A stretch of DNA of 24,000 nt from Georgenia sp. Z1491 (GTDB lineage: Bacteria; Actinomycetota; Actinomycetes; Actinomycetales; Actinomycetaceae): positions 19,355 to 43,354 of the forward strand of contig NZ_JBNDNA010000018.1 in assembly GCF_049856175.1 (NCBI RefSeq), written 5' to 3'. The notes under the pieces were generated by a model that made no database searches, had not been told where the DNA came from, and worked only from the letters and a program-made list of their open reading frames with translations. Of the stretch, positions 5,423-23,622 are shown in pieces. Every line of letters begins with the position of its first letter. Position 1 is the first letter of the stretch. A program made the translations under genes and the position numbers.

Positions 5423-5626
5423 CTACTTTCGCGTTCCGTAGGGGGGCCGATTCGTCGGCTTGAGCGAGACGCCGAGGTTGGACGCCATCGACTGAACGGC
5501 GCTCTCGGACCGTCCGAGCTTCAGTCCGATCACTCGTGTGGGCGTATTGCCTCGGGCGAGGGCTGAGAGTTCCTGCTTCTCGGTCGAGGACCATGGCTTG
5601 CCTGAGTTGCGTGTCGATTTCGACAT
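5423..5626 (-). CDS. Small (67 aa) Myb/SANT- or GcrA-N-terminal-like HTH protein
   Basis: MSKSTRNSGKPWSSTEKQELSALARGNTPTRVIGLKLGRSESAVQSMASNLGVSL fits a W-x-x-E...L...G...I...LGR...AV pattern. ATG at 5626 is preceded by GAGGTGG. The longer track ORF extending to 5746 has no RBS support. Confidence 0.55.
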   Translation of the reverse strand: MSKSTRNSGKPWSSTEKQELSALARGNTPTRVIGLKLGRSESAVQSMASNLGVSLKPTNRPPYGTRK

Positions 5627-5745
5627 GTGACCACCTCGATCTTGATCCTGCCGGGTGGGTCTGACATCGAGCCCGCGTCGGCTCCCCCCGTCGAGGTGCG
5701 TCCCTCGGTTGCGGCTGTCCGCGGTGGCAACGGACGCGCAGCCCA

Positions 5746-5773
5746 TTGATTAATCCAGGATCCTGGATATTCT
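5746..5773 (+). promoter_or_regulatory. Sigma-70-like promoter (TTGATT, 16-nt spacer, TATTCT) with a perfect 16-bp palindrome ATCCAGGATCCTGGAT (5753-5768) filling the spacer
   Basis: Read directly from the sequence. It is the most AT-rich stretch in the region and lies 28 nt upstream of the yhfZ-like ATG. Confidence 0.5.
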
Positions 5774-5800
5774 CTCTCCGTGGTGTCGACGGAGATTCTC

Positions 5801-6694
5801 ATGACGCGCGTCGGGTACGTGGTCTCACGCCTGGCGGGCGAGCTCGCCGCGCTCACGCCCGGTGACCGCATCCCGAAGGTCGACGACCTCGCTGAGAAGC
5901 TCGACTGCGGCCGCGGGACGATCCAGGCCGCCTTCGCGGTCCTCGAGGAGGCTGCTGCGCTGCGGCTCAAGGCTCGTGGGCGGCTCGGCACGTTCGTCGA
6001 GGCGATCGACCACCGCAACCTCTGGGAGCTGTCCGGCCGGCGCTCAGCCTCGCTCGCGATGCCACTGCCGTACACGCGTCGGTACGAGGGGCTTGCCACC
6101 GGCCTCCAGGCTGCCTTCGACGACGGCGCCATGCCGCTGACGCTGTCCTTCATCCGCGGCTCGGTCGCCCGGGTCCGCGCGCTGCGCGAGGGGCGCGTCG
6201 ACCTCGCCCTCGTCTCCGCCCTGGCAGCCAGCACCTTCGGCGATGTCGAGACCGTCCACGACTACGGCCCCGGCAGCTACGTCGCGGCGCACGCCGTCGT
6301 CGTCCGCCGCGGTATGGACCCCACGGACGCAACCTTGAGGGTCGCGGTCGACCCGAGCTCGGCCGATCTCGTCGACCTGGTGGCCCGCGTCTTCCCGGAC
6401 CTCCCGGCGGAGCGACGCATCGAGATGTCCTACAACCACCTCGATCGCGCGTTCACCGACGGGGCCGTCGACGCCACCGTGTGGAACGCCGACGAGATCG
6501 GTTCGCACATCTCCACGCCCATCGACCTCCACCCGCTGCCCGACTCGGTGGGCGACGCGAACACACGCGGCGTCGTCCTCCGTCTCGCCGGCGACACCCC
6601 GATCTCGGTGGCCGTGCTCGACGCGCTGCGCAGCGACCGCGTGCTGGGCATCGCTGACGACGTCGTCGCCGGACGCGCGATCCCCACCTACTGA
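5801..6694 (+). CDS. yhfZ: YhfZ-like regulator (GntR-type winged HTH plus YhfZ C-terminal domain)
   Basis: N-terminal wHTH IPKVDDLAEKLDCGRGTIQAAFAVLEEAAALRLKARGRLGTFV, and AMPLPYTRRYEGLATG, which I recall as characteristic of YhfZ. ATG at 5801 lies 7 nt after GGAG. GTG at 5780 is an alternative start. Confidence 0.75.
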   Translation: MTRVGYVVSRLAGELAALTPGDRIPKVDDLAEKLDCGRGTIQAAFAVLEEAAALRLKARGRLGTFVEAIDHRNLWELSGRRSASLAMPLPYTRRYEGLATGLQAAFDDGAMPLTLSFIRGSVARVRALREGRVDLALVSALAASTFGDVETVHDYGPGSYVAAHAVVVRRGMDPTDATLRVAVDPSSADLVDLVARVFPDLPAERRIEMSYNHLDRAFTDGAVDATVWNADEIGSHISTPIDLHPLPDSVGDANTRGVVLRLAGDTPISVAVLDALRSDRVLGIADDVVAGRAIPTY

Positions 6695-6717
6695 TCCCCG
6701 CCCCCAAGGAGTCCCGA

Positions 6718-7116
6718 ATGCATCCCACGGTCACTGCCCGGCTCGACGTCTACCGATCCATGGACACGGTTCCGGACGCGGTCGTCGACGCCGTCGCCGA
6801 CGAGGTCGACCGCATCGATCCCGGAGGGGCCCTCGACGACGAGGCGGTCGGCTCGTTCGTCTCCCACCTCGTCAGCGCGCTCGCCAGGGCGGTCGACGGC
6901 GACACGTCCGTCGAGCAACCCGTGGAGGCCGTCTACGACGAGGTCAGACGCACCGTCCCCGACGCCGACTCACGAGCGAGCGAGCTCGCCGCCCGCGTCT
7001 CCGAGCGCCTGTCGGTCGACGTCCCCGAGCCCGAGCGGCGCTTCGTCGCGATCCACCTGGCGGTCATCGACCAGCACCAGACGCAGCACCAGTCCCAGTC
7101 GAAGGAGACATCATGA
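6718..7116 (+). CDS. yhfY: YhfY-like PRD-domain protein
   Basis: 132 aa, helical. Two His-containing PRD-like segments (FVSHLVSALAR, RRFVAIHLAVI). AAGGAG RBS before ATG 6718. ATGA overlap with the next gene. Confidence 0.65.
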   Translation: MHPTVTARLDVYRSMDTVPDAVVDAVADEVDRIDPGGALDDEAVGSFVSHLVSALARAVDGDTSVEQPVEAVYDEVRRTVPDADSRASELAARVSERLSVDVPEPERRFVAIHLAVIDQHQTQHQSQSKETS

Positions 7117-7475
7117 AGATCATCGTCGGAGGCGTGGCGAAGTCCGCCGTGGCCGATGCCCTGAAGCCGATCCTGCGCGAGACCGACTCGGTCGCGGTCG
7201 GCAGCGACATGGATGCGGCGATGAAGCTGCGCTCCGGTCAGGCCGACTACTTCCTCGGCACCTGCCACACGGGCGCCGGTGCCAGCCTCGGCGTGCTCGT
7301 CGGGCTGCTCGGCACGAACAAGTGCCACACGTTCGCCCGCCGCGTGCCCACGTCCGACGACGTCACGGCCGCCGTCGAGTCCGGCGTGCAGGCGCTGGGC
7401 TTCTCGGTAGACCAGGTCGAGGTTGCAGCGCCCACCATCTACCGCGCGCTCGTCGCGCACGACGAAGGACGTTGA
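7113..7475 (+). CDS. yhfU: YhfU-like DUF2620 protein
   Basis: 120 aa. MKIIVGG...DMDAAMKLRSGQADYFLGTCHTGAGASLG matches my recollection of the DUF2620/YhfU signature. AAGGAG RBS. Confidence 0.75.
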   Translation: MKIIVGGVAKSAVADALKPILRETDSVAVGSDMDAAMKLRSGQADYFLGTCHTGAGASLGVLVGLLGTNKCHTFARRVPTSDDVTAAVESGVQALGFSVDQVEVAAPTIYRALVAHDEGR

Positions 7476-7477
7476 CC

Positions 7478-8875
7478 ATGGGCACCGTGATGCTCTCCGC
7501 TCCGCAGGTGGGGATCAGCTTCGAGGTCTGGCAATCCGGCGTGGTGCTGGCCGTATCGGCGATCGCCGCCGTCCTGGCCCACTACGCGCTGGCCGTCTTC
7601 AACGACGGCGCCCGCCCGTTCATGCTCGACTTCATCCAGGGGCGCACGAGCAGGGCAGCGACCGCCACGATCATCTTCGGCCTGTCCGCCGGGTTCATCT
7701 TCGGCCTCGGCGCGCCGATGGCCCTGTCCACGGGCGTCCTCAACCCGTGGCTCATCTTCCTGCCCGCCGAGATCCTCGGCCTCATCGCTCCCTGGCCGTG
7801 GCTCGCCGCGGCGCTCGGCCTGAGCTGGGGCGCGATCTGCGCGTTCGGCCTGTCCACGGTCAACAACGCCGCGCAGCAGCTGCCGATCGACTTCATCACC
7901 GCCCTGCAGCAGATCGGCACGCCGATCCTGTGGCTGTTCGCCATGTTCCCCGTCATCGCCGTCGCCCAGCAGTTCGGCAAGATGCGCGGCGCGATCACGT
8001 TCGGCGTCGAGGCGGTGGCGATCGTCGCCACGATGAAGCTGTGGCCCACCATGTTCGCCGGTGCCATCGCCATGGCCCTCGGTGTGGCGATGCTGCTGGC
8101 CTTTGCGCTGACCAAGGACCGCACGCGACGGGCAGCCGAACAGAGGGAGCTGGCGTCCCAGGGCGCGGAGGCGATCGATGCGGCCCGGGCGTCGAAGGCA
8201 GCGGAGGCCGAGGCGGTCGACCAGCTCTTCGGCCCCAACGCCGAACGCCTGCGCCGCGGGCTGCCGTGGCTCGCGATCCTCGGCGCCGGCGTCGCCGCTC
8301 TGTCCGCGACCCACGTCTTCGCCGGCGGCGAGGCCACCTCCTTCCTCATCGCCGACGGCAACGTCACCGAGGCGGCCCAGGTCGACTTCTACCGGGCCTT
8401 CGGCTTCATCCCGCTCATCGCGACGACGGCGCTCGCGTCTGGTGCCTACGCGATGGCCGGGTTCACCTTCGTCTACCCGGTCGGCTACCTCACCGGCCAC
8501 TGGGTCGACAACCCGGTGCTCGCGATCGCCATCGCGGCGGTCCTGGGCGCGGCGATCTTCGCCGTCGAGGTCTTTGCCCTGTCGGCCCTCGGTCGCTGGC
8601 TGCAGCACTGGCCGTCCGTGCGTGACTCCGCCGACCACATCCGCAACGCGATCCACGAGTCGCTGCACCTCGCGATCCTCGTCGGCTCGCTCATGGCGGC
8701 GCTCGCGATGGGCGGCGGGCTGGGCGTGTTCATCGTCGGTGGCCTCTACCTGCTCAACGACGCCATGGGCCGGCCCGTCGTCCGGATGGCCGCCGGTCCT
8801 GCCGCGGTGATCATCGGTGGCGTGGTCCTCAACCTGCTGTACCTCGTCGACCTCTTCGCACCGGTCGCCGCGTGA
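7478..8875 (+). CDS. yhfT: YhfT-like polytopic membrane protein (putative permease)
   Basis: Many hydrophobic segments. ATG at 7478 lies 2 nt after the yhfU-like stop, preceded by GAAGGA. The track start at 7322 would overlap the yhfU-like gene by about 150 nt and translates as Arg-rich nonsense. Confidence 0.8.
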   Translation: MGTVMLSAPQVGISFEVWQSGVVLAVSAIAAVLAHYALAVFNDGARPFMLDFIQGRTSRAATATIIFGLSAGFIFGLGAPMALSTGVLNPWLIFLPAEILGLIAPWPWLAAALGLSWGAICAFGLSTVNNAAQQLPIDFITALQQIGTPILWLFAMFPVIAVAQQFGKMRGAITFGVEAVAIVATMKLWPTMFAGAIAMALGVAMLLAFALTKDRTRRAAEQRELASQGAEAIDAARASKAAEAEAVDQLFGPNAERLRRGLPWLAILGAGVAALSATHVFAGGEATSFLIADGNVTEAAQVDFYRAFGFIPLIATTALASGAYAMAGFTFVYPVGYLTGHWVDNPVLAIAIAAVLGAAIFAVEVFALSALGRWLQHWPSVRDSADHIRNAIHESLHLAILVGSLMAALAMGGGLGVFIVGGLYLLNDAMGRPVVRMAAGPAAVIIGGVVLNLLYLVDLFAPVAA

Positions 8876-9813
8876 GCATGCCCGGCACGACGACGATCCG
8901 CACCGTCTCGGGCCCGGTGGCCGCCTCGGCGGTCGCCGGCCCGGTCCTCGCCCACGAGCATCTCGCGCTCGACCTGCGCACGGGCGACGACGCCGAGGGT
9001 TTCCTCGCCCACGAGGACGCGGTCACCGCGGAGCTCGCACGGGCAGCCGACGCGCACGGACTGGCGCTCGTCGTCGACCAGACGGCGCGCGGGATGGGGC
9101 GGGACGTCGCCGTCCTCGCCCGGATCTCCGCCGGCTCGGGGGTCGACGTCGTCGCCGCCACCGGCTGGTACTACGCGAGGTTCCATCCGGACGGAGAGCC
9201 GGGTGACGACGTCGGGAGGGCGACGGACCTCCTGCTCGCCGACCTGCTCGAGGGCATCGACGGGACCGGCATCCGGGCGGGCGTGGTCGCCGAGATCGGT
9301 ACCCACGCCGAGGAGCCGACACCCGCGGAGTCGATCGGTCTGCGTGCCTCCGCGCGGGCCGCCTGCCGCGCCGACGTCTCGCTCGCCACGCACGCCCACC
9401 TGGGCACCGGCGCGCGCGCCCAGCTCGACCTGCTGCTGAGAGAGGGCCTCGACCCCGCCCGGATCGCGATCGGCCACCAAGACCTCAGCGCGGACGAGGA
9501 CCAGCAGGACGAGCTGCTCGCCGCCGGCTGCTACCTCTCCTTCGACACGGTCGGCAAGGAGTCCTACCGCCCCGACGACGCCCGCCGCGCCCGCATCCTC
9601 GCGCTCGTCGAGTCCGGGTACGGCGGCCGGCTGCTCCTCAGCAACGACATCTCCCGGCACGCCTACCTCGCGTCCGAAGGAGGCCAGGGCTACGGGCACG
9701 TCCTGGGACCGTTCGCCGACTCGCTGCGATCCTTGGGGCTGGAGATCGACGACATCGACAGGCTCTACCGGCGCAACGCGCTCCGCTGGCTGACGGGGGT
9801 GGGGACCAGATGA
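8872..9813 (+). CDS. php: Phosphotriesterase-homology protein (Php/YhfV; amidohydrolase superfamily)
   Basis: Metal-ligand motifs LAHEHLALDL, HAHLG, IGHQD and LLLSNDI. GTGA overlap with the yhfT-like stop. ATG at 8878 is an alternative start. Confidence 0.85.
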   Translation: MSMPGTTTIRTVSGPVAASAVAGPVLAHEHLALDLRTGDDAEGFLAHEDAVTAELARAADAHGLALVVDQTARGMGRDVAVLARISAGSGVDVVAATGWYYARFHPDGEPGDDVGRATDLLLADLLEGIDGTGIRAGVVAEIGTHAEEPTPAESIGLRASARAACRADVSLATHAHLGTGARAQLDLLLREGLDPARIAIGHQDLSADEDQQDELLAAGCYLSFDTVGKESYRPDDARRARILALVESGYGGRLLLSNDISRHAYLASEGGQGYGHVLGPFADSLRSLGLEIDDIDRLYRRNALRWLTGVGTR

Positions 9814-10940
9814 CCACGAGACCAGAGCTGCCGGCCACAACGCCGCTGCCCGTGATGGACGCGGACGGAGCGTTCGACCTCCAGCAGCGGCTCGTCGAGG
9901 CGATGTGCGAGGAGATGCCGGGCGCTGCGCCGTTCGAGGCCGACGCCGGCGTGCGCCCACCGCTGGGTCGACCCGGAACGACGGCCGGCGTCGAACGCGT
10001 CCTCGCCCGCGCGTTCGGCGGAAAGGCGGCGTGCCTCGTCCAGGGCGCAGGGACCGGCGCCATCCGCACGGCACTGTCCGCCGGGCCCTGGCGGTCGGGC
10101 GTCCGCCGTCTCCTCGTCCACGATGCCCCGGACTACACGACGACGGCGCAGACCTTCGCGGACGGGTGCGTCGAGACCGTGCGGGTCGACATGGGCGACG
10201 ACGACGCCCTGCGGGCGGCGCTCGCCGGCTCGGGCGACGACGCCTGGGTCTACGTCCAGCACACGCGCCAGAGGCTCGAGGACGCGTTCGACCCAATGGC
10301 GGTCGTGCGTCTCGCGGTGCAGCACGGCCGGCGCGTGATCGTCGACGACAACTACGCGGTCCTGCGCACGCCGAGCATCGGCGTCGAGCACGGGGCCGCT
10401 GCCTCGGCCTTCTCGCTGTTCAAGCTGCACGGGCCGGAGGGGGTGGGCGTGGTGGTCGGGGACGCTGACCTCGTCGACGCCGCCCACGCGGCCAACTACT
10501 CCGGCGGCGGCCAGGTCCAGGGCCATCAGGCGCTCGAGGCGCTGCGCGCGCTCGTCACCGTCCCGCTCGCCTGGGCTGCGCAGGCCCGGGAGGCCGCCCG
10601 GCTCGCCGAGCTCCTCGACGCCGGCCACGTGCCGGGCGTGGTCGGCGCGCGGCTCGCGAACGCCCAGGACCTGTGCGTGGTGGCACTGCTCGAGGAACCG
10701 GTCGCCGACGCGGTGCGCGCGGCGGCCGCGCAGCTCGGTGCCGCCCCGTACCCGGTGGGCTCGAACTCGCGCTACGAGATCGCCCCGATGATCTACCGGC
10801 TGTCCTCCTCCGCACTGGACTCCAGGCCCGACCTGCGGGAGTGGACGCTGCGCATCAACCCGATGCGGGCGAGCGCCGAGCTCACCGCCCGTCTCGTGCG
10901 TCGCGCGCTCGACCAGGTGGGGGGACGCCATGTTTCTTGA
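9810..10940 (+). CDS. yhfS: YhfS-like PLP-dependent enzyme (fold-type I, aminotransferase/C-S lyase-like)
   Basis: Candidate PLP-lysine context AFSLFKLHGPEGVGVVVG. 376 aa. ATGA overlap with the php stop. Confidence 0.7.
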   Translation: MTTRPELPATTPLPVMDADGAFDLQQRLVEAMCEEMPGAAPFEADAGVRPPLGRPGTTAGVERVLARAFGGKAACLVQGAGTGAIRTALSAGPWRSGVRRLLVHDAPDYTTTAQTFADGCVETVRVDMGDDDALRAALAGSGDDAWVYVQHTRQRLEDAFDPMAVVRLAVQHGRRVIVDDNYAVLRTPSIGVEHGAAASAFSLFKLHGPEGVGVVVGDADLVDAAHAANYSGGGQVQGHQALEALRALVTVPLAWAAQAREAARLAELLDAGHVPGVVGARLANAQDLCVVALLEEPVADAVRAAAAQLGAAPYPVGSNSRYEIAPMIYRLSSSALDSRPDLREWTLRINPMRASAELTARLVRRALDQVGGRHVS

Positions 10941-12105
10941 CGCGTTGCTCCGGCGAAACCCGCTCCTGGTCGACGCTGCCGCCCAGCTGCACGCCGACGG
11001 TCGGGTCGAGGCCGATACCTACGTCGTCGACGCCGATGCCGTCGAGGCCAACGCCGCCGCCCTCGCGAGCGTGGCCGCGGAGCACGGGGTCACGGCCTGG
11101 TTCGTGGTCAAGCAGCTCGGGCGCAACCCGGCGCTCGCCGCCCGGATCGCCCGTCACCTGCCCCGCGCCGCGGCCATCGACCTGCGGGAGGCTCGGGTCC
11201 TGCGTTCGGCCGGCGTCGAGCTGGGCAACGTCGGGCACCTCGTACAGATCCCGGTCCGTGCCCTCGACGAGGCGCTCGCCTGGCGCCCGTCGCACGTGAC
11301 CGTCTACGACCGCGCGAACCTCGCGGCCGTGGCTGCCGCCGCGGAACGCGCCGGGATCGTCCAGGACGTGCTCCTGCGGATCGCGGGGGATCCAGCTTCG
11401 ACCTACCCGGCGCAGGAGGGCGGCATCGACCTCGCGGACGTGGCCGTACTGCTCGAGGAGTCCGACCGGATGGCGGCGGTGCGGGCCGTCGGCGTCACCG
11501 GGTTCCCGTGCGTGCTGCTCGCCCCGGACACGGGGGAGCCGCGGCTGACGCCGACCGGTGAGCTCGTCGAGGCTGCGGCAGGCGTTCTTCGCGACCGGGG
11601 GATCGATCCGGTGGTGTCGATGCCGAGCCTGTCCAGCTGCTCGACGATCCCCGTCCTCGCTGCGCACGGCGCCACCCACGTCGAACCCGGGCACGCGCTG
11701 ACCGGCACGACACCGGAGCACGCCCGCCGCGACGACCTCCCCGAGGTCCCCGCCATGGTCTACATCTCCGAGCTCGCACGCACCGAGCCGGATGCGGCTG
11801 TACTGGGCGGCGGCTTCTACGCGCGCGGTCACGCCGAGCACGCGCTCATCGACCCGCGCGGCGCCGCCGTGCGGGGGCGCCTGATCGGCACCCCGCCGGA
11901 GAACATCGACTACTACCGACGCCTCGGCCTCGAGGCGGGCGACCGGGAGCGGGTGCGGCTCGGCGACACCGCCGTCATGGCGTTCCGGACCCAGATCTTC
12001 GCCACGCGTTCCCGGGTCGCCGTCGTGTCCGGCGCCGCCTCAGGCACTCCGGTGATCGACGGGATCTACGACAGCCTGGGTACGCGGATCGAGGCCGGAC
12101 AATGA
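10930..12105 (+). CDS. yhfX: YhfX-like alanine-racemase-fold PLP enzyme (predicted amino-acid racemase)
   Basis: N-terminal VVKQLGRNP, a PLP-lysine context of the alanine racemase N-terminal domain fold. 391 aa. 11-nt overlap with the upstream gene. Confidence 0.7.
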   Translation: MFLDALLRRNPLLVDAAAQLHADGRVEADTYVVDADAVEANAAALASVAAEHGVTAWFVVKQLGRNPALAARIARHLPRAAAIDLREARVLRSAGVELGNVGHLVQIPVRALDEALAWRPSHVTVYDRANLAAVAAAAERAGIVQDVLLRIAGDPASTYPAQEGGIDLADVAVLLEESDRMAAVRAVGVTGFPCVLLAPDTGEPRLTPTGELVEAAAGVLRDRGIDPVVSMPSLSSCSTIPVLAAHGATHVEPGHALTGTTPEHARRDDLPEVPAMVYISELARTEPDAAVLGGGFYARGHAEHALIDPRGAAVRGRLIGTPPENIDYYRRLGLEAGDRERVRLGDTAVMAFRTQIFATRSRVAVVSGAASGTPVIDGIYDSLGTRIEAGQ

Positions 12106-13355
12106 CGGTGACGATCCTCGTCGTCGACGGCCTGGGCATCGGAGCCATGCCGGACGCCGGCGAGCTGCGGCCAGGCGACGTCGAGGCCGACACGATCGGC
12201 CACGTGGCCGGCTGGTCGCTGCGCGAGCGCGGTCGACCGCTGGACGTCCCACATCTGGCGGCGCTCGGGCTGGCGGCGCTGCGCCCGGACCTGGGGGAGA
12301 CGGTCGAGGCTGGGACCGGGGACGGCCCGACCGGGCTGCCGGCCAGCCTGCGCGCGATGGCGTACCGGGTCGCCCTCGGCTACCCGGGTGCCGACACGTT
12401 CGCGGGCCACCAGACGATGATGGGCGCGGACATGTCGCACGTGGTGCTGTGCCCTCTCGCGGACCGGATCGACGCGGTCGCGGCCGCGCTGTGGTCGGCG
12501 GGCCACCGTGTCGAGCGCCTGGACGGGCAGGCGCTGCTCATCGTGGACGGAGCCGCGCTCGTCCACGACAATCTCGAGGCCGACCCGGGCCTCAACTGGA
12601 ACGTCTCGTGCCGGCTGGACGACCTGCCGTTCGAGGAGATCGTGGCGATCACCCGCGTGGTGCGCGGCGTCGCGCCGGTGGCGCGGGTCATCGCGGTCGG
12701 CGGGCGGTCGGACGGTCCGCTGGAGGAATTTGTGCGTGACGGCGACTTCGGCGTGGTCGGGATGGACACTCCTGCGTCGGGTTTCTACCGCAACGGCGGG
12801 CTCGAGGTGCTGCATCTCGGTGCGCCGATCGATCACTCCAGTCAGCTCCCGCAGGTGGCCGCGGCCCACGCGAAGCAGGTGACCCTCATCGGCAAGGCTG
12901 CGGACATCCTCGAGTGCGACCTTCCGGTGGAGAGGCGACCCGGTGTCGACACCGCCGACGTCCTGCGGTGGACGCTCGAGGCGCAGGGGCACGCCGATCT
13001 CGTGGTGGCCAACGTGCAGCAGACCGATCTGGCAGGGCACCAGCAGGACGTGGGGAGATATGCCGACCTGCTCGAGCAGGTGGACCGGGCGCTCGTCGAG
13101 CTGACTGCGGGGCTGAGCGGCGAGGACCTGCTCGTCGTCACCGGGGACCACGGCAACGACCCGACTATCGGGCACGGATATCACACGCGTGAGTACGTGC
13201 CGGCGCTCGTCGTGGAATCACGGTCCGGGACCGACCGCGGAACGGAACGGAGCGCGGCGTCGGCAGCCGCTGACCTTGGGTCGCTCCGTGAGGTCGGTGA
13301 GCTGTCCGCCCACCGGTTGGGAATCGACGAGCCGGGCTCGGTCCGCCGCGCATAG
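12102..13355 (+). CDS. yhfW: YhfW-like phosphopentomutase/metalloenzyme-superfamily protein
   Basis: ILVVDGLGIGAMPDAG at the N-terminus and VVTGDHGNDPTIGHGYHTREYVP near the C-terminus (DeoB-type metal-site motifs). ATGA overlap with the upstream gene. Confidence 0.8.
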   Translation: MTVTILVVDGLGIGAMPDAGELRPGDVEADTIGHVAGWSLRERGRPLDVPHLAALGLAALRPDLGETVEAGTGDGPTGLPASLRAMAYRVALGYPGADTFAGHQTMMGADMSHVVLCPLADRIDAVAAALWSAGHRVERLDGQALLIVDGAALVHDNLEADPGLNWNVSCRLDDLPFEEIVAITRVVRGVAPVARVIAVGGRSDGPLEEFVRDGDFGVVGMDTPASGFYRNGGLEVLHLGAPIDHSSQLPQVAAAHAKQVTLIGKAADILECDLPVERRPGVDTADVLRWTLEAQGHADLVVANVQQTDLAGHQQDVGRYADLLEQVDRALVELTAGLSGEDLLVVTGDHGNDPTIGHGYHTREYVPALVVESRSGTDRGTERSAASAAADLGSLREVGELSAHRLGIDEPGSVRRA

Positions 13356-13438
13356 ACCTCAGAGCCAGGTCAGGTTGGACTCATATTCCAGTCGAATCGC
13401 TGTCGTTCTTACGGCAGCGCACCGGAGGGAGTTCCGTC

Positions 13439-13837
13439 ATGGTGGCCGCACGCTCGGCGCACGGCAGCCGATCCGTTGCCTCCTCGAACGAGGGCAGGCA
13501 GCGTCCGGAGGACTGGACCGTCGCCCAGATCGTCGAGCATCTGAGCGACAACCTCGGTCCGAAGGTGGTCGCCTACATGGTGGGCAAGAGCCCCCAGACC
13601 GTGTCGCGCTGGGCCGAGGAGAAGCAGCGTCCCCCGCAGCCTGACGTCGAGCGCAAGCTCCGCGGCGCCCTCCAGATCTTTCAGCATCTCGTTGAGCGGG
13701 ACTCTCGGCACGTCGCGCGCGCGTGGTTCATCGGCATGAATCCGCAGCTCGAGGACCGCAGCCCCACCGAGGTCATCGCAGACGGAGACGTCCGTGCCGC
13801 GATGGCTGCAGCTCGCGCGTTCTCCACCGGGGGATGA
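13439..13837 (+). CDS. Xre/MbcA/ParS-type antitoxin (HTH plus DUF2384 toxin-binding domain)
   Basis: C-terminal ARAWFIGMNPQLEDRSPTEVIADGDVRAAMAAARAF fits the DUF2384 pattern. N-terminal HTH VAYMVGKSPQTVSRWAEEK. GGAGGGAG RBS. Confidence 0.75.
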   Translation: MVAARSAHGSRSVASSNEGRQRPEDWTVAQIVEHLSDNLGPKVVAYMVGKSPQTVSRWAEEKQRPPQPDVERKLRGALQIFQHLVERDSRHVARAWFIGMNPQLEDRSPTEVIADGDVRAAMAAARAFSTGG

Positions 13838-14893: not shown

Positions 14894-15511
14894 ATGACGC
14901 CGCCCCCGACGCCCACGCGCCACCGATGGCGCCAGCCCGTGCTGGGCCTGGCCGTCGGGATGGTGTGCGCCGTCGTCGCCTTCCTGCTCCTCGGCCTCGT
15001 CCGCGACGCCCGGGCGGACGAGCACGTCACCGGATATCGCCTGAGCGACGAGGACGCGCTCGCGCCCGGCCCGGTCTCGCTCGTCTCGGTGCGGGACGTC
15101 CGTCAGCCGTCGTCGGTCCCAGGTCTCGCAGCACCGACGGGCGACCGCTACATCACCCTCGTCGTCGCGATCGAGGGCGACGTCGGCGCTACCGCAGACA
15201 CCCCCACCGACACCCCCACCGACGACGACACCCCCACCGACGACACCCCCACCGAGGAGTGGATCGACCTCGACGGCCTGGAGCTCACCCTCTACGCCGT
15301 CGACGACTCGGGCGAGCGCGAGGAGCTCGTCCCCACCGACCGCGGCCGGCGCACGCTCGACGGCATCGGCGGCGAGGTCCGCAGCATCGACCCGTACTGG
15401 ATCCGCGCCGGCTACGAACCCCCGTCCGGCGACGCCGAGCACTACGAGATGGACATCGTCGTCGACGGGGAGCAGTACACGCTCGCCGCCCGCACGGAGG
15501 AGCAGGAATGA
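14894..15511 (+). CDS. Hypothetical single-pass membrane-anchored protein with a (TPTD)n linker
   Basis: ATG at 14894. Transmembrane segment VLGLAVGMVCAVVAFLLLGLV. G/C-rich third positions. Stop overlaps the next start (ATGA at 15508). The acidic TPTDTPTDDDTPTDDTPTEE stretch is encoded by a 12-bp microrepeat at 15197-15253. Confidence 0.65.
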   Translation: MTPPPTPTRHRWRQPVLGLAVGMVCAVVAFLLLGLVRDARADEHVTGYRLSDEDALAPGPVSLVSVRDVRQPSSVPGLAAPTGDRYITLVVAIEGDVGATADTPTDTPTDDDTPTDDTPTEEWIDLDGLELTLYAVDDSGEREELVPTDRGRRTLDGIGGEVRSIDPYWIRAGYEPPSGDAEHYEMDIVVDGEQYTLAARTEEQE

Positions 15512-16104
15512 CCGACGACGACGCCCCCACCCCCGCCCCCACCCCCGCCCCCACCCCCGCAGCCGGAACGCGAGCCGCCACCTCCCGCACCCTCTTCTGG
15601 GCCACCGCGACCCTCACCTTCGTCCTGGCCCTCACCGTCCTGGTCCTGCTCCCGCGTGGCGGCGCAGCGGCACCGGCCGCCGCGGGCGAGGAGGTGAGCG
15701 CCGAGCTGACGGACGGCGTGACCGTCACCGTCCTGCCAGAGCTGCGGGACCTCGGCTGGCGCGCGGCCTCCTCGACCCGCCCGTACGCGCTCGACCTCCG
15801 CCTGACGATCACCAACGACTCCGAGGACCTCTTCCCGCGCTGGTACCGCGTCGAGGTGTTCGAGGCCAGCAACGTCGTCGAGGGCGAGGACCTGGGGGAG
15901 CGGCTGACCGGCAGCCTGCAGACCGCGCACGTCCCCGCGGGCGGGCAGGCGTCCACCGACCTGTCCTACTTCCACGACCGGCCGTGCGGTGAGTTCGTCG
16001 CCCGGATCTCCTACCGGCTCACCCTCGAGGCCGACGACGAGCAGACCGACGTCGACATCCCCATCCGCGTCGGGGACGAGGAGTGCCTGGCCGAGCGCGA
16101 ATGA
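15508..16104 (+). CDS. Hypothetical single-pass membrane-anchored protein with a (PTPA)n N-terminus and a beta-rich ectodomain
   Basis: MTDDDAPTPAPTPAPTPAAG, then transmembrane segment LFWATATLTFVLALTVLVLL, then an alternating beta-like pattern (LDLRLTITNDSEDLF...). 12-bp repeat in 3 copies at 15523-15558. Confidence 0.65.
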   Translation: MTDDDAPTPAPTPAPTPAAGTRAATSRTLFWATATLTFVLALTVLVLLPRGGAAAPAAAGEEVSAELTDGVTVTVLPELRDLGWRAASSTRPYALDLRLTITNDSEDLFPRWYRVEVFEASNVVEGEDLGERLTGSLQTAHVPAGGQASTDLSYFHDRPCGEFVARISYRLTLEADDEQTDVDIPIRVGDEECLAERE

Positions 16105-16135
16105 GTACGCCGACCTGGCCCCGTCGGGCGCCGGC

Positions 16136-17275
16136 TCACCCGCCTCTGGGTACCACCGGCTGCGTCCCCCGCGCCCGCAGCCACCTCTCGGCCGGGTGCT
16201 CGACCAGCGAGTACAGCGCCCACGCCGCCGCCTGGGACAGCGCGAGCAGCGCCACCCACTCCAGCGCCACGCCCACCCCGGGCGAGGTGAGCCCGAGCCC
16301 GTCGGGCACCACGTGGTTCCACGCCCGGATGACGGGCTCGTGGACGAGGTACCAGGCGTAGGACCACGCCCCGAGCCGGATGGACACGCGGTCGCGCACG
16401 AGTGTGGCCCGCCCGTCGATGTCGTGCTGCGCGGCGGCCACGATGAGCAGGGCGAACACCGGCGTCGACCACCACTGCGACCCGGAGTACGGCCCGAACC
16501 CCGCCTCCCCGCCGGAGACCCGCTCCCACGGCACCATCGCGGCGTGGAAGGCGACCACCAGCACCACGGCCGGCCAGTACCCCACGGGGGAGCGCCCGCC
16601 CCGACGCACCACCACGGCGCACAGCACCCCGATCACGAACTGCACGAGCCGCGACGGCGGGAAGTAGTCGAGCCAGAACCCCTCCCAGCCGACGGTGCCG
16701 AACACCCACCACAGACCGAGGAGCACGACGCCGCACCCCACCCACAGCGCCCCTCGCCACCGCCTGCCAGCCGCCGCGATGGCGAGGAGCGCGGGGAAGA
16801 GCAGGTAGAAGAAGGCCTCGTCGCTCAGCGACCACGACGCCGGGTTCGCCCCGTCCTCCCACAGCGGGTGCCAGGCCTGGAGGAAGAGGAACGTCGTCGC
16901 GGACTCCCACACCCCCGGCAGCTCGTCGATCCACCAGTAGATCGCCAGCGAGATCGCGCCCGTCGCCGCGACGAGCGGCCACAGCCGCGCGAACCGCCGC
17001 CACATGAAGACGCCGAACCCCACGGGTCGGTCGAGGTAGGTCCACGCGAGCACGAACCCGGACAGGACGAAGAAGAACGTCACGCCCGTGCGGCCGAACG
17101 CGGTGAGGTAGCTGAGCACCGGCACCTCGCCGACCTGCGCGCTCAGGTGGTACATCACCACGAGCAGCGCCGCCCAGAACCGCAGCCCCGTCAGCGAGTG
17201 CAGGCGCGACGGGAAGTCACGCCCGACGGCAACCGCGCGCCCGCCGCCCCCACCGGTCCCGCTCGCACTCGACAC
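16136..17275 (-). CDS. Acyltransferase family 3 (OafA/YrhL-like) membrane protein
   Basis: LTGLRFWAALLVVMYHL...GVTFFFVLSGFVLAW is the acyltransferase-3 N-terminal signature, and the protein is polytopic. GTG at 17275 is chosen as the start; GTG at 17338 is possible. The track start at 17566 would cover the divergent gene. Confidence 0.8.
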   Translation of the reverse strand: MSSASGTGGGGGRAVAVGRDFPSRLHSLTGLRFWAALLVVMYHLSAQVGEVPVLSYLTAFGRTGVTFFFVLSGFVLAWTYLDRPVGFGVFMWRRFARLWPLVAATGAISLAIYWWIDELPGVWESATTFLFLQAWHPLWEDGANPASWSLSDEAFFYLLFPALLAIAAAGRRWRGALWVGCGVVLLGLWWVFGTVGWEGFWLDYFPPSRLVQFVIGVLCAVVVRRGGRSPVGYWPAVVLVVAFHAAMVPWERVSGGEAGFGPYSGSQWWSTPVFALLIVAAAQHDIDGRATLVRDRVSIRLGAWSYAWYLVHEPVIRAWNHVVPDGLGLTSPGVGVALEWVALLALSQAAAWALYSLVEHPAERWLRARGTQPVVPRGG

Positions 17276-17362
17276 GAGCGGACACGTTACGGGCGCGCCG
17301 CCCGCGCCGCAGGATCGGCGGCCCGGAGCACCGCCCACCGAGCGGCCACCTACCCTGGACCC

Positions 17363-17743
17363 ATGCCCCGACGCCGCATCGACCCCACGATCGGGCTCGC
17401 CGCCGTGCGGGCCTGGCAGGAGGACCCGGACTCGATGTCCCGGGCCGACCTCATGACGGCGGTGCGGTTCACCCTCGAGGAGCTGGCGATCTCCTCCCCG
17501 GGCGGGGCGCTCGAGGTGCGGGTCCCACCGGCCGGCGCGGTCCAGGCCATCGCGGGCCCGCGGCACACCCGGGGCACACCCCCAGGCGTGGTGGAGACGG
17601 ACCCGGCCACGTGGCTCGCGCTCGCGAGCGGCGACCTCGACTGGGGCACGGCGGTGAGCGAGAGTTGGGTCTCGGCATCGGGGGAGCGGGCCGATCTCGG
17701 CGCGTGCCTGCCGCTCGTGCGCCGGGGTAGGTTCAGCCAGTGA
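17363..17743 (+). CDS. Sterol-carrier-family protein (bacterial SCP orthologue type)
   Basis: VRFTLEELAISSPGGALEVRVPPAGAVQAIAGPRHTRGTPPGVVETDPATWLALASGDLDW...SASGERADL matches my recollection of the actinobacterial sterol carrier family. ATG at 17363. Confidence 0.7.
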   Translation: MPRRRIDPTIGLAAVRAWQEDPDSMSRADLMTAVRFTLEELAISSPGGALEVRVPPAGAVQAIAGPRHTRGTPPGVVETDPATWLALASGDLDWGTAVSESWVSASGERADLGACLPLVRRGRFSQ

Positions 17744-18246
17744 CGCAGCACGACCCCTCCGGCACCTCCGGCGAGCCGGAGCACCACGCCCCCGACGACG
17801 ACGCGCCCCCGCCCGCCGCCGACCCCACGGCGCGCACCGAGGACCTCGCGGGTGAGAGCGACCAGGCCGCCGAGTCCGACGCCGACGCCCCGGACGACAC
17901 CTCCGACGCCGAGCCAGAGCCCGAGCCGACCCGAGCGACGACGGTCGGCCACGTGCGCGCCGCCCCGCGGTACGGCCGGTTCATGTGGACCGGGTTCCTG
18001 CTGGGGATCCTCGTGAGCATCTTGCTCGTCGTGTTCACGGAGGGCCAGTCGTTCGGCGACGACTACGCCGACGACGTCGGGGGCAGTCAGTTCTTCACCG
18101 ATCGCCTGAGTGATTCGAACGCCATCGGTCTGCTCGTCCTCACGCTGGGCCCGCTGGGCATCCTGCTGGGTGCGTTCGTCGCGTACCTGCTGGACCGCCG
18201 CTCGCTGCGCCGCCGCGAGCGCGCGACCAGGGGGCTCACGGAGTGA
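17740..18246 (+). CDS. Hypothetical membrane protein (acidic Pro/Asp-rich N-terminus, two transmembrane segments)
   Basis: GTGA overlap with the upstream stop. Transmembrane segments FMWTGFLLGILVSILLVVF and IGLLVLTLGPLGILLGAFVAYLL. Basic tail RRSLRRRERATRGLTE. Confidence 0.65.
   Translation: MTQHDPSGTSGEPEHHAPDDDAPPPAADPTARTEDLAGESDQAAESDADAPDDTSDAEPEPEPTRATTVGHVRAAPRYGRFMWTGFLLGILVSILLVVFTEGQSFGDDYADDVGGSQFFTDRLSDSNAIGLLVLTLGPLGILLGAFVAYLLDRRSLRRRERATRGLTE
18158..18242 (+). repeat. Left copy of an 85-bp direct repeat (the 3' end of the 17740-18246 gene)
   Basis: 78/85 identical to 19758-19842 at an offset of exactly 1600 bp. Mismatches at 18168, 18192, 18214, 18222, 18229, 18231 and 18240. 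Confidence 0.9.
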
Positions 18247-18356
18247 TCGCGAGCATGGTGTGTGCCCGTTCGGCCGTGGAGTCTCTGCCGGATAGTTGGT
18301 GAGAGCGTGACCCGCACCGGGTCGCGGCCCCGACGATGCTGGTTGACGCGAACTCG

Positions 18357-18935
18357 TCAATCGATCAGGTTGGGCGCCACCAAGGCTCGGCAGTGTGCGT
18401 GGACCCGATCGGCAAACTCGTCGCAGCCCGCCTGCGCCAGTGCATGCCAGATCGATCGTGGGTTCATCTTCGCCCGCCAGTAGTTGAACTGCTTCAGCGC
18501 GACAGCCTGGACGATCCGAGGCGTCGAGTCATCGACAAGGCAGAAGAACTCGTCTGGAGTACTGATCTCGTAGCGGTCGTCTTCGATCTTCAGGTAGGAC
18601 GAATCGTTGGTGAGGACGAGATCGATCTCGCCCGCGACGGCCGCGGCATGGATGTGCCCGTCGTTCGCGTCGGCCCCGGCGAAGTCCGATAGGTGCGGAT
18701 ACTCGGCGATCACGGTGTCAGTTGACTCGCGGAGCAGTTGCGAGAGGCGGTGAATCACTGCGCCGTCGACTCCCCGATTGTTCCGCCTGAGGTGGTATGT
18801 CACTTCGGACACGATGTCTTCGGTGGTGTGGAGCGTGAACATTCCGCCACCCGAGGCGTCACGAAGGAGGAACAGCCAGTCACGAACGGTCTTGCTGTTG
18901 AGGACATTGCTGTCCGGCAGCACCTTCGTGATCAC
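18357..18935 (-). CDS. PIN-domain protein (toxin-like, 192 aa, with a roughly 60-aa C-terminal extension)
   Basis: VLPDSNVLNSKTVRDWL (first acidic PIN motif) and DANDGHIHAAAVAGEIDLVLTNDSSY (C-terminal PIN motifs). GTG at 18935 lies 28 nt after the upstream stop. The track start at 19055 overlaps the HTH gene. Confidence 0.8.
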   Translation of the reverse strand: MITKVLPDSNVLNSKTVRDWLFLLRDASGGGMFTLHTTEDIVSEVTYHLRRNNRGVDGAVIHRLSQLLRESTDTVIAEYPHLSDFAGADANDGHIHAAAVAGEIDLVLTNDSSYLKIEDDRYEISTPDEFFCLVDDSTPRIVQAVALKQFNYWRAKMNPRSIWHALAQAGCDEFADRVHAHCRALVAPNLID

Positions 18936-18963
18936 CCATCCAGCGTAGCTGCCGACGCCGACG

Positions 18964-19398
18964 TCACTCCCGAATGCCGTGTTCCTCTTCCAGGTCGCGC
19001 AGCTCGGCAAATGCGTCGCGCTGGCGGCTCGAGCGTGCCGACCGGAACTCGACAACGTCCGCTGATCGCAGTCGAGTGTGCGAGCCGACCTGGTGGCTTG
19101 CCAGGTCGCCGTTGCGAATGTGCTTCATGAGGGTCGGGCGCGAGATGCCGAGCATCCGGGCCGCCACCGTCGTCGACACGACTTCGGGCACGGACTGAAA
19201 GGTGACATCTGCGCCAGAGGCGATCGCCTCGATCGCCTGCCGAAGGAACTCCGACAGGGCGGGCTCCAGGGTGACGGCGTCGCGACCTCGTGCGGAGGTG
19301 ATCATCTCGAGGGTCTGTCCGTCACGTGGTGGCAGCTCCGAGACGAACTGCCGCGCCTCGCTGCGCACCTCGTCGGAGACAGTCATGGTGTCAGGCAC
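18964..19398 (-). CDS. Excisionase-family (MerR-like) HTH DNA-binding protein, putative antitoxin of the PIN gene
   Basis: VSTTVAARMLGISRPTLMKHIRNGDLASHQVGSHTRLRSADVVEF is the excisionase-type HTH. GTG at 19398 lies 5 nt after GAGGAG. Confidence 0.8.
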   Translation of the reverse strand: MPDTMTVSDEVRSEARQFVSELPPRDGQTLEMITSARGRDAVTLEPALSEFLRQAIEAIASGADVTFQSVPEVVSTTVAARMLGISRPTLMKHIRNGDLASHQVGSHTRLRSADVVEFRSARSSRQRDAFAELRDLEEEHGIRE

Positions 19399-19460
19399 GG
19401 TCGCTCCTCATCTCCACAACGCCGCTCGCTCTGCGTGCCGTGGACCAACAGTGTCCAACT

Positions 19461-19478
19461 TTGCACTCGTAAGTGCAA
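19461..19478. promoter_or_regulatory. 18-bp palindrome TTGCACTcgtaAGTGCAA, a candidate autoregulatory operator of the HTH-PIN operon
   Basis: Perfect 7-bp arms with a 4-bp spacer, about 63-80 nt upstream of the HTH start on the minus strand. Confidence 0.45.
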
Positions 19479-19711
19479 CCCCGGATCGACTCCGCGAGGG
19501 ACCAGATTGGCGCGCCCGAAGGCCGCGCGCACCGCTCGGCAAGAGAAGGCGCAGCTGCCGCTACCAGCTCGCCCCGCCGTCGGCGGACACGAGCGTCTCC
19601 TCGCCCGCCCACAGCCACATGGCGTCGCCTGCGCCGGCCACGGCGGTCTGACCGGCCTCGGGGTCGGCGCCCTCGGCGGACCCGGCGAGCTCGACACCAC
19701 TGGAGCGTGAG

Positions 19712-19894
19712 TCCGGCGACGACGATGCCGTGCTTCTCGGGCCGGGTATCCTCGCGAGCATCCTGCTCGGTGCGTTCGTCGCGTACCTGCTCGACCGCCG
19801 CTCGCTGCGCCGCGGCGAGCGGGCGACCCGCGGGCTCACCGACTGGCCTTCGGACGTTCCGCGCGACACCGTGCTCGTCGTATGCCACAGTTGA
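19712..19894 (+). pseudogene. Start-less 3' fragment homologous to the end of the 17740-18246 gene
   Basis: Translates to SGDDDAVLLGPGILASILLGAFVAYLLDRRSLRRGERATRGLTDWPSDVPRDTVLVVCHS*. No in-frame ATG, and the frame is closed upstream at 19649-19651. Contains the right copy of the 85-bp repeat (19758-19842). Confidence 0.6.
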
Positions 19895-19951
19895 GGCGCC
19901 GGCGACAAGAGGCCAGCGCGATCTCTTCCCTTGAGGGGATAGCCGGCGCAC

Positions 19952-20611: not shown

Positions 20612-20856
20612 GTGCGGGCGTCCTGGTTGGTCCGCGCGCAGTCGTTGGTGATCACCCTGCGAGTATGAGTAACACGCCCGACGTGATGACGCGCAGCCGT
20701 TGAGTCGGATCACGCAGGGCACTCGAGGAGGCCTGATGTGCAGGCGGCCACCCAGCCTGCGCGACCATGAAGCCGCTGCCGTTCGCGGTGCGGATGTGCG
20801 AGTTGACAGCCCCGCGTGCGGGCGAAGCCAATTGCTGGTCATTCTCTTGACGTCGA

Positions 20857-21687: not shown

Positions 21688-21718
21688 GAGCAAGATCCTT
21701 CCGATGAGTGAGAGGTTC

Positions 21719-21749
21719 TTTTCCTGCGGGTAGTCCCTACGCAGAAAGG
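21719..21749. promoter_or_regulatory. Imperfect inverted repeat ttttCCTGCG-N11-CGCAGaaagg in the IclR/BVMO divergent region
   Basis: Read directly from the sequence. It has one indel and is only weakly operator-like. Confidence 0.3.
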
Positions 21750-21938
21750 GTATCGCTCAGCAAGAGATTGGGTGGCGCGGCCTCGGTTCGACAGGGATGC
21801 TCACGGCCAAGTAAGGACGCGCTATCCCCGTCGTGAGCAGGCGGCGCACGAAGCGTGGCCGGTGAGTCACAGACAACCCGTCGGAGAGTGCCGCGCGCAG
21901 GGCGGGGTGGCGCTCAGAACGCAGAGCGAGGAGACGCA

Positions 21939-23597: not shown

Positions 23598-23622
23598 CCC
23601 GACGACAACAAAGGAGACAACG

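Follow-up and report, generated by a model that had tools for sequence, protein, structure and literature searches.

The 24,000-nt stretch of DNA analysed here (the window; from contig NZ_JBNDNA010000018.1 of the actinobacterium Georgenia sp. Z1491) harbours an eight-gene cluster of the yhf/php type, which is a real, intact, routine and already named member of a known, widespread but unsolved operon. Judged together with its relatives, the cluster may be regarded, at a probability of about 45 %, as a single substrate-inducible, YhfZ-repressed catabolic operon that is coupled to the phosphoenolpyruvate (PEP)-dependent phosphotransferase system (PTS) and directed at an amino-sugar-type compound. 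The yhf/php genes represent a conserved multi-enzyme operon of Escherichia coli K-12, which is still without function despite structures of four of its proteins. In line with a preliminary description of this DNA, according to which no role had been established for the gene set, no paper defining its substrate or pathway was found in the full-text literature, most papers in subscription journals lying outside this search. The Georgenia copy adds little on its own, but comparison with its relatives turns the open question into testable leads, i.e., an operator for YhfZ, a candidate relay from Enzyme I (EI) via HPr to a cysteine of YhfU, and a few candidate substrate classes ending at glucosamine-6-phosphate.

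Organization, control and distribution of the operon

Eight contiguous open reading frames (ORFs) on the forward strand (Table 1) belong to the families yhfZ, yhfY, yhfU, yhfT, php, yhfS, yhfX and yhfW. Pfam and NCBIfam profile searches agree for each gene on the family proposed in the preliminary description, and every motif quoted there is present in the translations. Likewise confirmed were the overlaps between neighbouring genes (ATGA at 7113, 9810 and 12102, GTGA at 8872, and 11 nt at 10930), which point to one translationally coupled unit. Short gaps separate yhfZ from yhfY (23 nt) and yhfU from yhfT (2 nt), a Shine-Dalgarno-like sequence being present ahead of each. The start of yhfT is most likely ATG 7478 rather than the upstream GTG 7322, which overlaps yhfU; GAAGGA is found 8 nt and the yhfU stop codon 2 nt upstream of the former. 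The start coordinate 5746 given in the preliminary description cannot be that of yhfZ, since an in-frame TGA is located at 5747-5749 and the first in-frame start codon is GTG 5780. The GC content of the cluster (0.68-0.75) is the same as that of its flanks. A consensus scan called neither an internal promoter nor a convincing terminator in the cluster. The GC-rich hairpin 44 nt past the yhfW stop codon (Table 1) was also not called by the consensus terminator scan; RNA folding of 13350-13440 yielded -32.6 kcal/mol (z = -2.7), and a role of the hairpin as terminator is weakly supported. Riboswitches, tRNAs or other RNA elements were not found in the window.

The promoter of the operon was missed by a generic consensus scan, its -35-like hexamer TTGATT scoring 8/12, and was called on the basis of a phylogenetic footprint. 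Upstream of yhfZ, TTGATT is followed by 16 nt, TATTCT, 6 nt and GTG. Alignment of 18 upstream regions, which represent nine named genera and two metagenome-assembled genomes (MAGs), revealed one conserved block composed of TTGnCA, ATATCCAGAATCCTGGATA and TAnnnT, while DNA further upstream is not conserved. The T, A and last T of the -10 hexamer are invariant in this alignment, and in each genus the start codon is located 6-8 nt further on, without a Shine-Dalgarno sequence. The operator element (consensus ATATCCAGAATCCTGGATA) occupies the same place ahead of yhfZ in nearly all of 77 regions (16 of the 18 aligned), and the palindrome ATCCAGGATCCTGGAT occurs only once in the window. This footprint suggests a single operon promoter with an operator occluding the -10 hexamer, and implies that the yhfZ mRNA is leaderless.

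Most likely, YhfZ is the protein that binds the ATCCAG-N4-CTGGAT palindrome, acting as autorepressor, as suggested by the position of the site and the family of the protein. YhfZ combines a GntR-type winged helix (HTH_41) with a YhfZ_C domain of ligand-binding type, and passes the equivalog model YhfZ_full (NF041241; 264.8 bits vs cutoff 260). It shares 31 % sequence identity with E. coli YhfZ, and its C-terminal domain matches PDB entry 2OZZ ("hypothetical protein yhfZ"). The actinobacterial operator is not present in E. coli. The yhfZ promoter region of E. coli K-12 contains a palindrome of its own, TATCTTCAAATTCCTGAAGATA, about 30 nt ahead of the ATG. The outer arms of this palindrome, TATC...GATA, agree with the ends of the operator from actinobacteria, representing either an analogous YhfZ site or a coincidence. 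Divergently oriented from yhfZ in the window is a small ORF (5423-5746, - strand), the product of which would comprise 107 aa with ATG 5746 as start codon or about 67 aa with the internal ATG 5626. It has no Pfam match and is not kept beside the operon in other genera; if starting at 5746, it would abut the operon promoter.

Table 1 Genes and signals of the yhf/php operon in the window
Feature	Position	Strand	Assignment and remarks
-35-like hexamer TTGATT	5746-5751	+	Aligns with conserved TTGnCA (18 actinobacterial loci)
Candidate YhfZ operator	5753-5768		Perfect 16-bp inverted repeat ATCCAGGATCCTGGAT; in promoter spacer, overlapping -10
-10 hexamer TATTCT	5768-5773	+	Actinobacterial TAnnnT type; 6 nt ahead of start codon
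yhfZ	5780-6694	+	Pfam HTH_41 and YhfZ_C, E 8e-45; NCBIfam YhfZ_full
yhfY	6718-7116	+	Pfam PRD, 22 bits
yhfU	7113-7475	+	Pfam DUF2620, 125.7 bits
yhfT	7478-8875	+	Pfam YhfT, 464 bits; polytopic membrane protein, 465 aa
php	8872-9813	+	Pfam PTE, 190 bits; binuclear-metal hydrolase, amidohydrolase superfamily
yhfS	9810-10940	+	Pfam YhfS-like_C, 120 bits; weak Cys/Met-PLP matches; fold-type I pyridoxal phosphate (PLP) enzyme
yhfX	10930-12105	+	Ala_racemase_N, 54 bits; YhfX-like_C, 74.4 bits; fold-type III (alanine-racemase fold) PLP enzyme
yhfW	12102-13355	+	Metalloenzyme; NCBIfam PRK12383; phosphopentomutase family
Candidate terminator	13399-13418	+	8-bp GC-rich hairpin without U-tract; 44 nt past yhfW stop

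With YhfT as marker and one genome considered per species, relatives were found in 457 species genomes. The best 80 loci from these genomes all belong to Actinomycetota, mostly to Streptomyces, other genera being Georgenia, Enemella, Boudabousia, Aeromicrobium, Jiangella, Cellulomonas and Actinomadura. All eight genes were detected by tblastn in the order of the window in 66 of the 80 loci; the remaining ones have no detectable match for the fast-evolving yhfY or are truncated at contig ends, and an ORF of the right size is located between yhfZ and yhfU in 75 loci. The order Z-Y-U-T-php-S-X-W is the majority order in Actinomycetota, where the cluster is common and its proteins are already named by NCBI, so that its initial designation as "orphan" does not apply to actinobacteria. 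Correctly recognized beforehand were the difference in gene order from E. coli K-12 (Z-Y-X-W-php-U-T-S, adjoining frlABCDR) and the sharing of the gene set across phyla (Actinomycetota, Pseudomonadota, Fusobacteriota and Bacillota). Conservation of gene content, also proposed then, is borne out by the 66 complete loci, but does not extend to yhfS, a gene that Vibrio halioticoli, Breznakia and two Paenibacillus genomes lack. Since the order of the window recurs in Cetobacterium somerae (Fusobacteriota; with an amidase-like gene inserted) and on a plasmid of Bacillus thuringiensis (Bacillota; carrying Y-U-T-php-S-X), the E. coli cluster is the rearranged form. The pairs U-T and X-W never separate, and Z-Y are adjacent except in Breznakia, where yhfZ is divergent. 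The family is small (304 clusters at 50 % identity in a set of 1.84 billion representatives). In actinobacteria, no flanking gene is shared between genera, so that the eight genes represent a self-contained module. Additional conserved flanking genes were sought, but most "ninth ORFs" after yhfW turned out to be spurious high-GC ORFs or unrelated peptidases. Outside the operon, comparison of the window with Georgenia wangjunii yielded only short spurious tblastx matches. An exact look-up of YhfS from the window among public assemblies returned no entry.

Probable links to phosphotransfer and the YhfU/YhfT pair

A first link to the PTS is provided by the single-PRD protein YhfY. Its PRD score (PF00874) of 22 bits falls just short of the Pfam cutoff of 23, and the orthologues at this position in the clusters of Cetobacterium and B. 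thuringiensis reach 41.5 and 43.5 bits, respectively. Two histidines about 60 residues apart, H50 (kept in 69 of 76 orthologues) and H113 (68 of 76), are predicted to be the phosphorylatable PRD histidines, and the motif of the first, (T/S)H-x3-A-x2-R, is kept in every phylum examined. YhfY is barely alignable with its E. coli counterpart, in which the second histidine is absent. A kinase gene is found neither in the window cluster nor in or beside any cluster examined, and the former also contains no aldolase gene. The conserved histidines of YhfY, the presence of a phosphomutase-type enzyme in a cluster without a kinase, and genes for HPr and EI within or directly beside the clusters of distant relatives suggest a connection of the system to the PTS.

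Informative contexts from beyond the actinobacteria and enterobacteria numbered 11. In five of them (L090, L091, L092, L093 and L095), whose gene orders differ from each other, the gene for HPr directly adjoins the cluster, and in the first four of these that for EI does so as well. The order on metagenome contig L091 is W, HPr, EI, YhfS-like, ABC (ATP-binding cassette) transporter, DUF2620, YhfT, YhfS-like and NagB; three further metagenome contigs display DUF2620-W-X-HPr-EI (L092), DUF2620-YhfT-PTE back to back with EI-HPr and then a SIS protein and YhfX (L093), and PTE-PRD-DUF2620-YhfT-YhfS-HPr (L095). Since HPr is usually encoded once or twice per genome, chance cannot explain its adjacency in five of 11 contexts. 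PEP-dependent phosphotransfer is rather probably a part of how the yhf/php system works.

The neighbourhoods also contain genes of amino-sugar metabolism. In a Cellulomonas MAG (L052), yhfW is followed by genes for HPr (88.7 bits, cutoff 47.9) and NagB, and bona fide NagB proteins are encoded beside the cluster both there and in L091 (TIGR00502, 264 and 317 bits, respectively; cutoff 237). A gene with two SIS domains is ATGA-coupled to yhfW in five loci of Aeromicrobium and a related MAG (L006, L007, L008, L009 and L048; e.g., L007 15832-16857). Its product is closest to NagB-II (glucosamine-6-phosphate deaminase) and the isomerase domain of GlmS, scoring below the equivalog cutoffs, and one such protein is also encoded in L093. 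The E. coli cluster adjoins the frl operon, which carries FrlB, and a gene of the ribulose-phosphate 3-epimerase family precedes yhfU-yhfT in L094. CUT1-type ABC sugar transporters (SBP_bac_1 plus two BPD_transp_1 permeases) adjoin the cluster in L089, L090, L091 and L095 (Paenibacillus and two metagenome contigs). The binding proteins from Paenibacillus are only weakly similar to the chitobiose-binding NgcE (74-83 bits vs cutoff 400), and this similarity was not relied on. A study on Lactobacillus rhamnosus lists PRD, DUF2620 and membrane proteins with consecutive accessions together with a phosphotriesterase-related protein (PMC7513527).

DUF2620 (YhfU) and YhfT, which the preliminary description treated as mere filler and as an unspecified permease, respectively, probably reveal more than any other part of the cluster. 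Their adjacency survives all rearrangements (E. coli, Vibrio, Breznakia, Paenibacillus and metagenomes). Moreover, a natural fusion of 267 aa (L092, 5258-6061) joins DUF2620 (residues 6-121, E 2e-20 with the YhfU profile) to a YhfY-type PRD domain (residues 148-263, E 5e-17 with the YhfY profile), providing a Rosetta-stone link. The AlphaFold 2 (AF2) model of YhfU (pLDDT, i.e., predicted local distance difference test, 93.6) has an RpiB-like alpha/beta fold, and its top five Foldseek matches in the PDB are all ribose-5-phosphate isomerases B (RpiB; E 6e-4 to 4e-3, template modelling (TM) score 0.61-0.67). The most conserved feature of the family is the loop G-x-C51-x-(T/S)-G-x-G after strand 3, both loop and cysteine being invariant in 14 sequences compared from four named phyla and metagenomes. 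This loop aligns with the catalytic loop C66-G-T-G-V-G-I-S of RpiB at an E-value (hhalign, 0.071) below significance. By sequence, YhfU does not belong to the RpiB/LacAB family (PF02502): the protein from the window has no match, and that of E. coli reaches 13.6 bits vs a cutoff of 24.7, this weak LacAB_rpiB match falling in the region of the Cys loop. Weak similarity of DUF2620 to Gly_rich_SFCGS was observed for two proteins (E 0.03-0.09), also below significance. Neither YhfU nor YhfT has sequence relatives in the PDB.

YhfT is 38 % identical to its E. coli counterpart. Its AF2 model (pLDDT 87.7) resembles no solved structure (best Foldseek E 0.11, TM at most 0.22), and no Cys or His is invariant in an alignment including the E. 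coli protein. Assignment of YhfT to known EIIC (PTS Enzyme IIC), MFS or LeuT-type transporters was rejected, since Foldseek against the PDB and a PDB profile search remained without match and a Pfam scan at E<=10 yielded YhfT only. An internal repeat was likewise dismissed (comparison of N- and C-terminal halves by hhalign not significant), as was a relationship to DUF4310/4311 (no match). One may tentatively propose that YhfU is a cysteine phospho-carrier and YhfT its membrane partner in a new PTS-type permease, an assignment for which the odds are somewhat unfavourable at present.

Proposed pathway and competing explanations

The four enzymes of the cluster retain their catalytic residues. 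In case of Php, the best PDB relatives are the E. coli PHP structures 1BF6 and 4LEF (E 1e-45), and the metal ligands (HxH, bridging Glu, His, His and Asp) all align with those of E. coli PHP. It scores far above the Pfam PTE cutoff (PF02126, 190 vs 22 bits) and below that of the PHP equivalog (NF007373, 176 vs 486); it is a family member and, judged by its position, an orthologue that has diverged. Phospho-sugar lactonases are among the members of the PTE family (PMC10971088), and the phospho-furanose lactonase model matches Php with 43 bits vs a cutoff of 630 (NCBIfam NF045706). An amidase-family gene is situated between yhfT and php in C. somerae (L083, 10276-11307), and another one replaces php in a metagenome locus (L096, 10371-11492), which hints at an amide as the bond possibly cleaved at the Php step in some lineages. 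YhfS matches the E. coli protein (PDB 4J8L, E 1e-78) with the lysine of FKLxGPEG kept; its nearest characterized relatives are methionine gamma-lyase, cystathionine gamma-synthase and cysteine desulfurases, and no DgaE-family match was obtained in the NCBIfam scan. Similarly, YhfX matches PDB 4KBX (E. coli YhfX, E 4e-73), the KQxGRNP lysine being kept, with alanine racemase and D-threonine aldolase as nearest characterized relatives. YhfW passes the YhfW-type model PRK12383 (369 bits vs cutoff 254) and stays below the canonical DeoB models (PRK05362, 119 vs 256; TIGR01696, 89 vs 341). Overall identity to E. coli DeoB is 28 % and the central cap region differs, whereas D9, D98-T99 of the nucleophile motif DTxxGH, D309/H313, D349-H350 and H361 are kept.

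From the gene content, coupling, conserved promoter and operator, folds, catalytic residues and neighbourhoods, we infer the substrate and every biochemical step of the following scheme. Transcription from the promoter with its -10 hexamer 6 nt ahead of yhfZ would yield a leaderless mRNA, binding of YhfZ to the palindrome over spacer and -10 would result in autorepression, and the seven genes downstream of yhfZ are translationally coupled to one another. Phosphate may pass from PEP via EI, HPr and the invariant cysteine of YhfU to a substrate passing through, or located at, YhfT, with YhfY reporting the phosphorylation state to YhfZ. Php could then hydrolyse an ester, lactone or amide bond of the phosphorylated product (an amidase replacing it in one relative), YhfW would move the phosphate, YhfX would invert the amino-bearing carbon, and YhfS, where present, might act as accessory lyase eliminating or removing the amino group. 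Conceivable substrates are derivatives of amino sugars, amino-sugar acids or lactones, and glycated amino acids. The preliminary suggestion of a catabolic route for a phosphorylated amino-sugar or modified amino acid is strengthened by the NagB, GlmS-like SIS and HPr/EI genes that adjoin the cluster elsewhere. Chances are about even that the substrate is indeed of amino-sugar type, its carbon leaving as hexosamine-6-phosphate or hexose-6-phosphate. The most far-reaching version, in which DUF2620 and YhfT constitute a new PTS class (fed by HPr/EI and monitored by YhfY) and the operon a new amino-sugar pathway to these phosphates, is doubtful; if the PTS-based interpretation of the pair holds, a transport system considered fully catalogued would gain a new family of permeases.

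Several observations weigh against a PTS-coupled amino-sugar operon. YhfU resembles RpiB isomerases and not a known EIIB (no PTS_IIB match in Pfam, no EIIB among the top 50 fold matches), and its sequence similarities to RpiB and SFCGS are both below significance. For YhfT, the Pfam scan at E up to 10 returned only YhfT itself and no EIIC family. No EIIA-like protein is encoded in the cluster, leaving a gap in the phosphoryl chain. The window contains no HPr, EI or EIIA gene, and 78 other actinobacterial loci are likewise without PTS genes nearby. HPr and EI, where adjacent, could serve only the regulation of the PRD protein, YhfT may not be the importer in view of the ABC sugar importers of four relatives, and the NagB/SIS neighbours, which only a minority of the lineages possess, could be parts of separate units next to the cluster.

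A first alternative is unlikely, albeit the strongest of the competitors: the same catabolic operon would function without group translocation, YhfT being a secondary carrier of ordinary type or an accessory protein bound to the membrane and YhfU a cytosolic RpiB-type isomerase. The PTS proteins would then merely tune expression via YhfY, as purely regulatory PTS branches are known (PTS-Ntr), and phosphate would originate from a kinase encoded elsewhere or from a pre-phosphorylated substrate. This alternative would agree with the five best fold matches of YhfU being RpiB, the alignment of its Cys-x-Thr-Gly-x-Gly loop with the RpiB catalytic loop, the weak LacAB_rpiB match of E. coli YhfU in the same region, the epimerase-family gene ahead of yhfU-yhfT in L094 and the ABC sugar importers adjoining the cluster in four relatives. 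However, the strict adjacency of yhfU and yhfT as well as the YhfU-PRD fusion are hard to explain for a soluble isomerase, and RpiB residues beyond the Cys loop are not evident in YhfU. Furthermore, no kinase is encoded in or beside any cluster examined, and dedicated pairs of HPr and EI would be a heavy investment for regulation alone.

Compared to this, degradation of a non-sugar modified amino acid is improbable. Substrates could be D- or beta-substituted amino acids, lactones or lactams (e.g., homoserine lactone) or phospho-amino acids. In this case Php would be an esterase or amidase and YhfX a racemase, YhfS would function as a beta/gamma-lyase, and YhfW would be a phosphotransferase or phosphatase. 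The nearest characterized relatives of both PLP enzymes do act on amino acids, amidase-family genes stand beside php (Cetobacterium) or replace it (L096), and the PTE family comprises lactonases; yet the genes encountered repeatedly beside the cluster encode sugar-phosphate enzymes and PTS proteins (NagB, GlmS-like SIS, epimerase-family, HPr and EI), YhfW retains the full phosphopentomutase catalytic set, and the YhfS lyase is dispensable in several lineages. Very improbable is a biosynthetic or metabolite-repair cluster that makes or salvages a small nitrogenous molecule derived from a sugar. Biosynthetic clusters, too, contain PLP enzymes, mutases and hydrolases, and ATP-grasp genes follow the plasmid-borne cluster of B. 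thuringiensis, but a permease-type protein, a ligand-type repressor with autoregulated promoter and coupling to the PTS are the usual signature of nutrient utilization, to which patchy distribution, variable flanks and neighbouring deaminases also point. In addition, the cluster is not accompanied by any conserved synthetase, glycosyltransferase or export function. A chance juxtaposition or decaying remnant, for which no support was found, has a next to negligible probability and is refuted, as far as sequence evidence goes, by eight intact ORFs with their catalytic residues kept, five overlapping junctions and a gene order that is shared by 66 of 80 actinobacterial species and recurs in other phyla.

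Surroundings of the operon and comparison with known systems

Downstream of the operon, the window contains a small ORF with weak HTH matches (13439-13837, + strand), an ORF of 392 aa without family (14926-16104, + strand) and, overlapping the latter by about 115 nt, an ORF of 584 aa (15989-17743, + strand) with a C-terminal bacterial SCP_3 domain as sole match. The region 18000-24000 is lower in GC content (0.64-0.69 vs 0.69-0.76 elsewhere) and harbours PIN-domain, DUF3800 and IclR-type genes; it may be a variable or acquired segment and is unrelated to the operon. Among the rearranged relatives, the plasmid pIAM14596 of V. halioticoli (L086, 2064-12779) carries the order Z-Y-php-U-T-X-W without yhfS, with a complete lactose/cellobiose-type PTS (IIB, IIC, IIA), a DUF7916 protein and a porin encoded directly upstream and a Tn3-family transposase downstream. 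In Breznakia pachnodae (L087) the order is X-W-Y-U-T-php with divergent yhfZ and no yhfS, and php is followed by a gene for a Y_phosphatase3-family protein (12297-13028).

The closest known counterpart is the E. coli K-12 cluster (b3383-b3376), which comprises all eight families (31-44 % identity for seven of them) with the same catalytic residues, is tightly packed on one strand and keeps the pairs Z-Y, U-T and X-W. It differs in gene order, in its barely alignable YhfY and in the absence of the actinobacterial operator. As the E. coli cluster is itself uncharacterized, the match provides a name rather than a function. The structural-genomics entries for Php (1BF6, 4LEF), YhfS (4J8L), YhfX (4KBX) and the C-terminal domain of YhfZ (2OZZ) are still labelled uncharacterized.

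With PTS clusters that contain PRD regulators (Bgl/LicT; MtlR/LicR/ManR with fused EIIB-like domains), the yhf/php system has in common a PRD protein with conserved histidines (YhfY), a small Cys-loop protein (YhfU) encoded beside a polytopic one (YhfT), the YhfU-PRD fusion, and HPr/EI genes adjacent in relatives. It deviates from them in that neither sequence nor fold places YhfT and YhfU in a known EIIC or EIIB family, EIIA is lacking, and YhfY, being devoid of an RNA- or DNA-binding domain of its own, has a GntR-type regulator as partner; for yhf/php, phosphotransfer is a proposal. RpiB/LacAB isomerases share with YhfU the predicted fold (TM 0.61-0.67) as well as position and pattern of the C-x-T-G-x-G-x-S loop, but YhfU is about 30 residues shorter and linked at the gene level to both a membrane protein and a PRD domain. 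With regard to the cog1735 PTE-family lactonases and phospho-sugar lactonases, Php matches the phospho-furanose lactonase model and has a binuclear metal site as complete as that of E. coli PHP, but its scores remain far below the equivalog cutoffs for PHP and for the lactonase alike.

The frl/gfr systems for fructoselysine and glucoselysine, which employ SIS deglycases, are related to yhf/php by context, since frlABCDR adjoins the E. coli cluster and a two-SIS gene of the GlmS/NagB-II/FrlB type is coupled to yhfW in Aeromicrobium. In contrast, a SIS gene is absent from the window, the proteins of this type from relatives score nearer to NagB-II/GlmS than to FrlB, and no yhf enzyme is homologous to FrlA, FrlC or FrlD. 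Salmonella dga represents the D-glucosaminate pathway, with its Dga chemistry. Neither this system nor the SFCGS cluster of Enterococcus faecium has counterparts of YhfX and YhfW, YhfS does not belong to the DgaE family, and the yhf cluster is devoid of a KDPG (2-keto-3-deoxy-6-phosphogluconate) aldolase. The E. faecium cluster resides on a transposon and encodes SFCGS, DUF4312, DUF4311, DUF4310, an amidohydrolase, a DgaE lyase, a KDPG aldolase and a BglG-type PRD regulator (PMC11934601). Its resemblance to yhf/php lies in the combination of a Gly-rich Cys protein, membrane protein(s), a hydrolase of the amidohydrolase superfamily, a fold-type I PLP enzyme and a PRD regulator, and the SFCGS/DUF4310-4312 clusters may represent a sister system of yhf/php.

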